Under the pieces are notes generated by a model, which saw nothing but the letters and a program-made list of their open reading frames with translations, made no database searches and was not told the DNA's origin. The translations under genes were made by a program, and so were the position numbers. From an uncultured Pseudomonadales bacterium (GTDB taxonomy: Bacteria; Patescibacteriota; Microgenomatia; UBA1400; UBA12028), in NCBI GenBank assembly GCA_964509365.1, contig CAZDWN010000003.1, positions 134,412 to 198,411 of the forward strand: DNA of 64,000 nucleotides, read 5' to 3'. This document shows, one piece after another, positions 22,242 to 25,500 of this stretch. Position 1 is the stretch's first letter. Each line of letters starts with the position of its first letter.

Positions 22242-22505
22242 ATGGCTCACGAACAAGAAATGGCTCAACTCATCTTTGACGACACGAATCGTCATGAAAA
22301 TGCTGCCAAAATGATCGATCGACTGACGATGGTGCTGAATTCAGACGCGGCAGTCGTCCTCATGGAAGCGACGATCGTACGATATGTAGGTAAAGAAGGA
22401 TCGCCGGATCCTCGGCTTCAGGTAATCTTTGGCGATGAACCGATCCTTATCGACCCAGCGATGGTCGCCGATGCGCTCAGTCGCTTGTTACTTCGTCAAC
22501 AATAA
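22242..22505 (+). CDS. small hypothetical protein, convergent with and overlapping the 3' end of the giant Cys-rich gene
   Basis: 87 aa from the first ATG; no RBS. The coding status is doubtful. Confidence 0.2.
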   Translation: MAHEQEMAQLIFDDTNRHENAAKMIDRLTMVLNSDAAVVLMEATIVRYVGKEGSPDPRLQVIFGDEPILIDPAMVADALSRLLLRQQ

Positions 22506-25500
22506 GGCATGATATGCGCCTTCTGCGATGAGTCCGGCATCAAACAATCGCACTGCGAGATCCTCTTTGGGTAAGAACTGCCGGCTGGCTTCCGCCGTAA
22601 CCAGATCATTCAACTCATCCACGGGGAGCGACCGCAGATAACCGTTAGAAAAGTTCATTTGAATGCCTCCGTACGGCATGTCCTTGAGCACAGCATCTCG
22701 TGCTTCTTCATACATGAGCGATCGATCGATCAAATTCCACCATGGCTCTCCAATCTTCTGACCCATGTCCATGGCATAGCAAACAGACGACTGAATATTG
22801 ATACACCCGGATTTGCTGATAATCGCGCCAAGTGATTCGTTGTTTAGATTGTCGAGGCCCCCTGCGTTTGCTACGATTCGCTGTGCAGTTTTTATGTCGG
22901 GAGCATTCAGGATATCTCTGGCCACGTTTGCTTCAGTCATCACTCCTCCGCCAGTTCCAAACCCAAAATCAGCGGGGGTCATGCCTGATTTCAGCTGTCC
23001 AGCAGATTGCAGTGATGAGAGCAGATCCAACTCGGTTTCACATGTCGGGCAGGTACTCCACACATACCCAGGAAACTTACGGAATATATCTGGAGTAATT
23101 TTCCCACCGGAGGCATAGAGCGAGTCCGCAAGTTCTTTCGGAAGTATTTGCTCGGCTTGCGCCAGTACCCCATCCGTACTGATTGTTTTCAATGTCGAAC
23201 TCGTCGTATTCACGAGTAATTTCCCAAATCCTACAAAGAAGTCAGCGACAAATGTCGTCGAGGAACCAGCTGCGATCGCTTCTTTGAGACAATCCTTTCG
23301 GCGTCCTGCGACGAGATCTTGCGTACAAGCAATATATGCTTGTACCGATTTGTTCGCGATATCTACACCACCGAGCGTGGCAGCGTCTGCCAGTTGGTAA
23401 AAACCCAAGACTGCACAGTCGTATGCAGAAGAGGAGCCTGTAGAGCAAGATTGTCGTAACGCATTCGTGCGTTCAATCCATTGCTTGAGTCCGGGGACAC
23501 TGCGACATTGGCTTCCAAACGGTATCGGAGATTCATCGACCAAACAGTAGCAACCTCTGCTATCCGAGCAATAGCTGTCTACGCTAATCGTTTTTTGACA
23601 GTACTGACCTGGCGAAATAAATCGTTCCTGGCAAGCACATGAGGTGACGGTGCTTGGACAAGTCGATCCCGCTGGAATGGTGACGGCGGTGGGAGTCCCA
23701 GAATTCTTACACGCGCAAGACTGTGGCTCTGTAGAAAGTAATGTGCGACCGCAGTATCCTTTGGAACCATTGGCGGCTACACATGAAGAGCCGACCGTTC
23801 CACCGAAATTACATGAATCTGGCCCACCCTGACAGGAGTCTGTGTCTCCCTTTACCACACAAGAACCAGTGTTTGTAAAATATTGGCAACCTGCATTACT
23901 GCATGTGGTTTTGTTTCCTATAAATTTTTCACATTGAGTACTTGGATCCGTTGTGGAAACTGGTGGAAGGGTAGGCAGTACTTTCGGCTTCTGACCACAG
24001 TACGTCAAAGAGTTTGCGGTATAGGTGCTACTGCCCGAACAGCACACGGTTGTGGAGTTTGAAGGTTTGACTTTATTATCCGCGATGCAAAACAGCGGGA
24101 TACATTTGTTGTTGGTGGAATCATACTGGCACGCTCTGCCTGGCGCCTGACAGTCTGCAGTGTTTGTAAATTGACTGCACGAGGACGTCTGTCCAATACT
24201 CGATGAGCAATTATTGCTCGCTATTTTTTGAATCGAAGCATCTGCTCCGCTGCAGATAAGCTCAGGGGTACTGGCGCGTTGATTTGATTGTGATTCACTG
24301 AGCCACCTTCCTTTGCCGTTGCACCAGACACTACTAAAGGAAGATTGCGTTGCTCCGTCTGCGCATTGATTGCCACATTGCCATTGACCTGCGGGACACA
24401 AACTCGTTATTTTTGTCCCACCACAAGTACTCCCATTTGGTGTCGTACTTGCGTTTGAGCATGACTGCGGACATTGGCACAAACCAGTTTTGCTATCACA
24501 CACTTGTGTACACGAAGTAATTGGAGCTGGCTTGTTTATGCAAATTCCCCCGGAAAAAAAAGAACTGCTCACCCAGCTGCAAGAAGAGTTCAGGGCACAG
24601 CTAATGCGATTGGTTGATGTTGTGCAATCCAAAGCAGCTTTTTGACCCCCACAAGTACCTCCTGTGCCCAGAGAGATTGAGGCTTTGTTACAATTTGCGG
24701 GACAAAAACAAGCTCCTGAAATTGGACACGGTGTCGTACATGTCCCCAAGTCATAGGTAGCGACAATCGTTTTTTCTGCGCATCGATTATTGTTCCATGT
24801 ACAGTTCGGAGTATATCCGCATGTCATCGCATCGACAATTTGCACACAAGTCTTTGGAGTCGTACTCACAGGCTGTGGAGCAACACATTTATTTGTGGCG
24901 CTGGAGCACACTCCACTTGCACACGCGAATGTCTTGAAATCATAGCCAGTCGCAGTCGGTGTACAGGCACGAACGGTAGTCGCGTTGACGCAGCTCGATG
25001 CACCAATCTGACACTTTATCTCGCTTGCAGGGATCGTGTCCCCACAACAACTAGCGACACCAGATGGACAGATGCTGCAACTCGTAGATGGATATTTTCC
25101 CAATGCACTGCATGATGAGACCCCAAAAATACATTGCGCGCTATTTGTCGAAGGGGTAACACCTCCGCACGTCACATTGCAGACGTTGGTGATACATTGA
25201 GACGCATTGGTACATGTATTGCCATCAGCAAGTTTCGGACAGCGGACTCCTCCCGGGACACTGACATTTTGGCCATTTTGCTTTGGGCAGTTGCATTGAG
25301 CGAGACCAGCGAGACACATCTGACCGGCCACGAGTGTCGGGATCTGCTGCTTCATCGCCACACTGCAGCACACTCCGGTGAGACCACCTAGACATGATTT
25401 CTGTGAATCGACGACCCCATTGTTGAGCGAGCACTCCGTAGCTGTAGGGACACAGTTGAGTGGATTGCACTCGGTCGGCGTCGAACTGACTGCATTTTTC

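Follow-up and report, generated by a model that had tools for sequence, protein, structure and literature searches.

Sec-dependent polymorphic toxins (Rhs/YD, MafB and CdiA types) combine an export signal with a long repetitive stalk of RHS, FilH or ALF repeats and a conserved pre-toxin region, and beyond a sharp junction unrelated C-termini are exchanged between near-identical genes (Zhang, Aravind et al. 2012, PMC3482391). C-terminal caspase-like (clan CD) and kinase domains are recognised classes of toxin tails in these proteins (PMC3482391). MARTX and the large clostridial toxins are big multidomain proteins secreted against other cells, and no immunity gene goes with them; the C80 cysteine protease domain of MARTX and TcdA/B occupies an internal position, from which it sets the effector domains free. 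Large Cys-rich extracellular proteins have also been described in the candidate phyla radiation (CPR; Peregrinibacteria) as possible attachment proteins (Anantharaman et al. 2016, PMC4736985). They are over 1600 amino acids (aa) long with 7–12% Cys and a signal peptide, vary between strains, and belong to small genomes that invest in the cell surface. The means by which ultra-small episymbionts manipulate or damage the cells that carry them are largely unexplained, and the giant Cys-rich proteins of their surface have to date been labelled putative adhesins only. Here we analysed a stretch of 64,000 nucleotides (nt) of contig CAZDWN010000003.1 (assembly GCA_964509365.1; hereafter the window), which carries a gene for a giant Cys-rich protein, and describe the Cys-poor C-terminal end of this protein, where a conserved adaptor probably presents an exchangeable tail.

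The window protein and its few relatives are like the Sec-dependent polymorphic toxins in their export signal, long stalk, conserved pre-terminal region and sharp junction with unrelated C-termini. They differ in several respects. The stalk is built of novel Cys-rich modules, the pre-terminal domain of the window protein matches no pre-toxin family (VENN, PT-TG, PT-HINT, DUF1020), and its tail belongs to no known family. No immunity gene accompanies the swapped tail, and a tblastn search of the 64-kb window and 13 further loci revealed no extra tail or adaptor copies (orphan cassettes). Two relatives, P0002 and P0003, carry a C80-like domain at the C-terminus and in this respect resemble MARTX and the large clostridial toxins, whose general layout and lack of an immunity gene they share; their C80-like module, however, is terminal and exchangeable, and the window protein itself has neither a C80 domain nor RTX or CROP repeats. 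Compared by description, the window protein also has features of the CPR Cys-rich class: it contains 10–11.6% Cys, would be ∼2000 aa long if its two open reading frames (ORFs) are joined, and is absent from a close relative, with gene content pointing to CPR membership. Neither a conserved adaptor nor swappable enzymatic tails have been reported for that class (PMC4736985).

Anatomy of the Cys-poor C-terminal end

The ORF at 22488–25778 (minus strand) encodes a 1096-aa product. We observed that 88 of its first 758 residues are Cys (11.6%), as against 8 of the remaining 338 (2.4%; Fisher p=5e-8). Ala, Leu, Asp and Glu are more frequent in residues 759–1096 than in residues 1–758, and Thr, Ser and Pro are less so. 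An abrupt switch from Cys-dense repeats to an Ala/Leu/Asp-rich end, noticed in an earlier sequence-only reading of this DNA, is thus borne out. That reading had assigned the end to one ∼400-aa non-Cys-rich globular domain extending to nt 23700. A distinct Cys-poor end does exist, but it starts at residue 759, is ∼338 aa long (nt 22491–23504) and falls into two modules; the limit of 23700 had included ∼65 residues of the Cys-dense stalk. It is Cys-poor rather than Cys-free, since six Cys of its pre-terminal part are conserved in homologs. Landmarks in the 1096-aa ORF are DCAVLGFYQ at residue 787 and ESLGAIISKSG at residue 981, the latter as described earlier. The codon score of the C-terminal region is 0.17–0.19 in frame and −0.29 to −0.55 off frame; as codon usage is gene-like in frame only, we regard the region as coding sequence.

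An exhaustive phmmer search with the Cys-poor end against 1.84 billion cluster representatives returned four matches only: P0001, which is the window's own product, P0002, P0003 and P0004. The alignment of P0002 (612 aa) covers only residues 1–164 of the query and that of P0003 (988 aa) only residues 1–192, while P0004 (802 aa) matches residues 177–258 only. Because P0002/P0003 and P0004 match different parts of the query, the Cys-poor end splits, as judged from these alignments, into a conserved helical adaptor and an orphan tail of ∼150 residues, and does not appear as one globular domain. Four 50%-identity clusters among the 1.84 billion representatives make this an extremely rare family, and only two other protein clusters in this search share the pre-terminal domain.

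The portion of the stalk inside the 1096-aa ORF lies at 23505–25778 (minus strand), and its residues 303–758 are 42% identical to the stalk of P0003; the identity is also 42% when residues 303–930 are compared. The pre-terminal domain (residues 759–930; 22989–23504, minus strand) is predicted to be helical and is 40–45% identical to P0002, P0003 and P0008, the last being a close homolog of P0003. It is marked by the motif QWI[DE]RTN.LR..CSTG and by six invariant Cys, namely C778, C788, C818, C830 and the C910xxC913 pair within CPTCETE. A moderately hydrophobic helix, AIAAGSSTTFVADFFVGFGKLLV, is part of this domain (Kyte-Doolittle maximum 1.2–1.6 over 19 residues). The domain has no match in the PDB or Pfam. 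Similarity to P0003 ends after CPTCETE(L/Y)(D/E)L..LQ..G.L and a Gly-rich linker, which reads FGFGTGGG in the window protein and YGVAIGG in P0003. This Gly-rich junction, SGMTPADFGFGTGG (22947–22988, minus strand), is the end point of homology to the relatives' proteins. What follows is the variable tail of 152 aa (residues 945–1096; 22491–22946, minus strand), matched by the C-terminus of P0004 only.

Exchange of tails among relatives

The 90%-identity cluster of P0003 also holds P0008 and P0007. Over 840 aa, P0003 and P0008 share 88% identity; beyond this stretch their tails are unrelated, one C80-like and the other kinase-like. Comparing the C-termini of homologs for domain swapping, a check proposed in the sequence-only reading, therefore gave a positive result. 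The tail of P0002 is related to that of P0003 and passes the Pfam threshold for Peptidase_C80 (24.8 bits, gathering score 23.8), and both C80-like tails contain the His and Cys motifs. The tail of P0008 matches Pkinase with E=2e-6, contains GGGSYADVY..VAVK and HGDIKAEN, and all its 67 weak matches in the PDB are kinases. The G-loop, the VAxK Lys and the HxDxKxxN motif are found in both P0007 and P0008. Carried on an exported protein, the ∼190-aa kinase core of P0008 is reminiscent of the minimal secreted effector kinases of the HopBF1 type, a likeness that belongs to this relative and not to the window tail.

The exchange could be followed at the DNA level by comparing the loci L012 (C80 allele) and L011 (kinase allele), whose adjacent run accessions (SRR25018325 and SRR25018318) suggest that they come from one study. 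Their stalk sequences are 83.5% identical and give way to tail segments of 462 nt and 579 nt that have no homology to each other. Homology resumes 10–27 nt past the stop codon, and the convergent uvrA gene is 98.2% identical. As uvrA follows directly after the swapped tails, the exchanged unit is the tail alone, without an immunity gene. The window junction aligns with the ...AYG[VI]AIGG segment of P0003 and P0008, the spot at which the two tail alleles cease to be homologous at the DNA level. The window tail starts at this same junction, and it recurs on a different stalk in P0004. No flanking repeats that would mark a tail cassette were found in the window.

P0003 and P0008 begin with a signal peptide that can be cleaved; in P0002 and P0004 the N-terminus forms an anchor. 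As a separate observation, the contrast between stalk and uvrA over the aligned segments (L011 7910–13072 and L012 1–5037; 83.5% and 98.2%, respectively) suggests that the surface protein diverges or recombines at a strongly accelerated rate. The P0008-type gene was also present on a JGI contig (L013, 3–3382), where it had been called as three genes; P0008 aligns there in a single frame at 96% identity (tblastn), and the gene call is therefore probably split by in-frame stops or ambiguous bases. At the locus of P0002 (L006, 2900–10333), two large anchored surface proteins (1008 and 829–849 aa) flank the P0002 gene. Common to the two are an N-terminal region and tandem Ig-like repeats of ∼90 aa with a conserved Cys pair in each; neither protein has a Pfam match.

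The tail of the window protein

The window tail is acidic (isoelectric point, pI, about 4.5) and predicted to be helical. Its similarity to P0004 (phmmer E=9e-5 library-wide; BLASTP 34% identity over 76 aa, E=1e-11) can be aligned down to the very last residue and includes the conserved motif AGG[LI][DS]NL..ESL.AI...SGCI.I. P0004 is the only other protein with this tail, and its stalk and pre-terminal region differ from those of the window protein; the adaptor and the pre-terminal region of P0004 are unrelated by hhalign (probability 0.8%).

Searches of Pfam, NCBIfam and PHROGs with the C-terminal 334 aa, a 172-aa tail segment and the whole ORFs gave no usable match, and the tail has no Pfam match even at E≤10. 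Sequence and profile searches of the PDB with the C-terminal parts gave only noise (E>0.7). No relatives of the tail or adaptor were found in scans of genome, metagenome and viral contig collections, or by tblastn against plasmids and phages. AlphaFold2 models had a predicted local distance difference test (pLDDT) score of 51.7 for the 334 aa (single sequence) and 47.7 for the tail (two-sequence alignment), which is too low to use, and the best Foldseek hit of the low-confidence tail model in the PDB (E 1.3) is meaningless. The remote-homology and structure-prediction check proposed for this region thus turned up no housekeeping fold, with the structural half of it too weak to be informative (pLDDT 48–52). 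The initial impression that nothing in this end could be assigned holds for Pfam, NCBIfam, PHROG and PDB alike.

The window tail was compared with the tail classes of the relatives. A diverged kinase tail was rejected (hhalign probability 0.15%), as the G-loop, the VAxK Lys and HxDxKxxN are all absent. A diverged Peptidase_C80 was likewise rejected, with an hhalign probability of 0.04% against the C80-like tail of P0002 and no Pfam match at E≤10.

The segment at residue 981 had been read as faintly reminiscent of the E-S motifs of lytic transglycosylases, and it could accordingly be asked whether the C-terminal region holds a lytic-transglycosylase-like or other cell-wall enzyme. The E-S-L tripeptide is conserved in P0004. 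It is, however, the only element of SLT family 1 present: GLMQ and AYNAG are absent, no SLT, other Pfam or NCBIfam family matches at E≤10, and no PDB sequence match was obtained. On the sequence, this assignment is effectively refuted already, and we consider it highly improbable.

A proposed exchangeable effector at the tip of a disulfide-rich stalk

We propose that the Cys-poor end is the business end of a Sec-exported, anchored and disulfide-rich stalk, and that it presents an exchangeable effector at the distal tip, which would act on or in another cell, either a host or a competitor. We assign this reading a probability of about 0.5. The protein would be exported by the Sec route and held at its N-terminus, with a stalk that brings it to ∼2000 aa here. 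The pre-terminal domain (residues 759–930) and the Gly-rich linker would then serve as the constant adaptor and the recombination junction, at which a tail cassette of ∼150 aa (residues 945–1096) is exchanged. The same adaptor would carry a clan-CD/Peptidase_C80-like protease, a minimal protein-kinase-like domain or the orphan helical tail of the window, and it may help in release or translocation. A kinase-like tail on an exported protein would be expected to act in an ATP-containing compartment, that is, in another cell; by extension, the window tail could be an effector with its target in another cell.

Several observations weigh against this proposal. The swapping was seen in relatives that are ∼42% identical to the window protein and not at the window locus, and the family is known from a handful of metagenomic sequences. 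The Pkinase score of P0008 (27.7) is under the Pfam gathering score of 31.7. For the window tail, neither a fold nor a catalytic motif could be assigned, and one homolog only is known. Near the giant gene there is no evident gene for immunity, for a release peptidase or for dedicated secretion. Finally, the gene appears to be frameshifted, so its C-terminal half may not be exported, or may not be made at all, in this genome.

The lack of a recognisable catalytic motif in the window tail would also fit a non-enzymatic tip, such as an adhesin, a receptor-binding domain or a cap, in which case the variation would mean that an attachment fibre is diversifying in host range or in antigenicity. In CPR bacteria, large extracellular proteins rich in Cys have been proposed to function in attachment and to vary between strains (PMC4736985); the stalk evolves much faster than its neighbouring gene (83.5% versus 98.2% identity), and such a fibre would need no immunity gene. 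The alternative tails are, however, enzyme-like, one a clan-CD protease and the other a kinase with an intact G-loop, VAVK Lys and HxDxKxxN, which is atypical for adhesins. We therefore regard a non-enzymatic tip as rather unlikely.

The observed polymorphic-effector layout is supported, and a classical toxin-immunity pair is not. Of the initial suggestion, the architecture stands: a terminal module set apart from a long repeat stalk, like that of polymorphic toxins or of fibres tipped with an enzyme. With neither a travelling immunity gene nor orphan cassettes, effectors directed at a host or at other non-self cells fit better than kin competition. More tentatively, and with doubt prevailing, the locus and its few relatives could represent an undescribed effector-presentation system of small-genome (CPR-like) bacteria, host-directed rather than kin-directed, with the window tail as a new effector family. 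If so, a kinase, a C80-like protease and the new fold of the window would be recombinationally swappable enzymatic tails without immunity genes, borne on a Sec-exported stalk by a helical domain dedicated to adaptor or translocation functions. The kinase-like tail, the C80-like tail and the orphan tail of the window are concrete candidates for host-directed effectors, and the defined junction could be used for finding further tails. Both the adaptor and the window tail lie in currently unannotated sequence space.

The 87-aa convergent ORF

An ORF of 87 codons (22242–22505, plus strand) converges on the giant gene and overlaps its stop codon (22488–22490), as had been described; the overlap is 18 nt. 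It is probably a real orphan gene, as indicated by its codon usage and by a gene call in a public collection (P0010). The codon score is 0.359 in frame; in-frame windows of known genes score 0.256±0.116, and the highest value among 212 off-frame windows is 0.095. The product is predicted to be soluble and acidic (pI 4.6) and has no Cys. Its only match among 5.8 billion clusters is itself, and no Pfam, NCBIfam or PHROG match was found. A promoter-like site, TTGAAA-17-TATACT, is located just upstream (22205–22233, plus strand); it is a match to the consensus, and such sites are no commoner than expected by chance. No terminator-like site was found between the convergent genes.

The position of this ORF raises the question of whether the giant protein is a kin-directed polymorphic toxin and the ORF its cognate immunity gene, which would be transcribed separately, by a promoter of its own on the other strand, in the manner of the immunity genes of pore-forming colicins. 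The ORF lies at the 3′ end of the putative toxin gene, has strong gene-like codon usage and the promoter-like site, and encodes a soluble product sized like a cytoplasmic protein; it is moreover a lineage-specific orphan, as immunity genes often are. On the other hand, a convergent orientation is atypical for enzymatic toxin-immunity pairs, and the tail and the 87-aa product are both acidic (pI 4.5 and 4.6). Downstream of P0004, which has the same tail, are a SIMPL-domain gene and an unrelated convergent 54-aa ORF without similarity to the 87-aa ORF, so that the window and P0004 share no downstream gene. The swapped cassette of L011/L012 comprises the tail alone, and no orphan tail or immunity cassettes are found downstream. 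No immunity gene that co-varies with the tail was thus detected, and the toxin-immunity reading fails on both comparisons. We consider it unlikely, and the 87-aa ORF is a weak immunity candidate. It looks instead like an independent, divergently promoted orphan gene, because a duplicated element supplies the 335-aa gene next to it with a separate promoter.

This element is ∼115 nt long, occurs at 20884–20998 and 22070–22185 (minus strand; 80% identical) and contains a TTGCTT-17-TATACT promoter-like site. Its copies are upstream of a gene for a 107-aa transmembrane (TM) protein and of the 335-aa gene, respectively. The latter (21076–22083, minus strand) has a weak, below-cutoff match to DUF2807 (adhesin head GIN domain; E=6e-4). 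With the annotated TTG start its N-terminus is probably too long, and M40 near 21966 is the likely start. A 19-bp inverted repeat (21998–22016/22032–22050; 95% complementary, 15-nt loop) is likely in the 5′ leader of this gene and is absent from the copy upstream of the 107-aa gene. The positional counterpart of the 335-aa protein in the close relative L010 (316 aa) has no detectable similarity to it.

A probable frameshift and the upstream half of the gene

The 1096-aa ORF has no signal peptide of its own. It overlaps by 142 nt, out of frame (25637–25778), with an upstream ORF of 948 aa and 10% Cys (25637–28483, minus strand). The latter starts with an N-terminal TM/signal anchor, FIDVAAIAILILVSAAITV (∼28316–28390; Kyte-Doolittle 2.6), which is followed by Cys-rich modules; as indicated by ORF structure and hydropathy, it would form the upstream half (25758–28483, minus strand) of a gene of ∼2000 codons. 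The Cys pattern of ...CNINDRCQSPVAG is continued by (K)AYCVRTCSGNLVCKPD provided that one base is inserted into GGAAAGC near 25750, and not otherwise. From the ORF overlap and the continuity of the Cys pattern, we place the probable 1-nt frameshift at GCAGGAAAGCATATTGTG (25745–25762, minus strand), and the 1096-aa ORF is probably the 3′ half of the broken gene. Export of the window's C-terminal end by the upstream anchor would depend on reading through this site. The N-terminus of the giant protein is conserved in the relative L001, downstream of an orthologous PEGA gene.

The frameshift may have arisen by mis-assembly or by a real mutation (pseudogene), or it may reflect phase variation. If authentic, the gene could be a decaying pseudogene, with the C-terminal region an unexpressed relic and the 87-aa ORF unrelated to it. 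The out-of-frame overlap of the two ORFs and the missing signal peptide of the downstream one would be expected from such decay, and the gene lies in a fast-changing island and is missing in a close relative. However, a single disruption was seen in about 6 kb, the codon usage of the C-terminal modules is still gene-like, and assemblies commonly lose a base in a run of A. We consider decay improbable; it would also leave the nature of the domain in the intact family members unchanged.

Genomic context

The window is chromosomal, with genes for GAPDH, PGK, a Mur ligase and a release factor and many glycosyltransferase genes. Surface genes of the PEGA, LTD and PMT_2 types hint at a CPR-like monoderm. 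An interval bounded by PEGA and CarboxypepD_reg genes contains the giant gene. In the close relative L010, whose GAPDH is at least 90% identical, this interval holds unrelated small genes and no giant gene. A TasA/SipW cluster occupies it in the more distant L002. From these comparisons, and with the N-terminus of the giant protein kept in L001, the window segment at ∼19.6–28.5 kb is best described as a variable island. L001 and L002 come from SRP286056 (Polish wastewater and river metagenomes). The other family members are in unrelated contexts and share no neighbour.

A tRNA-Cys gene (29532–29603, minus strand) borders the island, two genes upstream of the gene with 10–12% Cys. Its counterpart in L010 (11660–11748) is 97% identical and inverted relative to the flanks, with two extra genes between the tRNA and the PEGA gene.

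Two further observations were made. The metagenome-assembled genomes with close homologs of the window's PEGA gene (L001–L003) have a gene content (TasA/SipW, PEGA, LTD, PMT_2, tiny protein clusters) that is a misfit with their label 'uncultured Pseudomonadales bacterium', which is probably a placeholder. Within the window, the G+C content of 12001–14000, inside a run of glycosyltransferase-type genes, is 35%, compared with a window average of about 46–48%, and this segment could be a horizontally acquired surface-polysaccharide segment.

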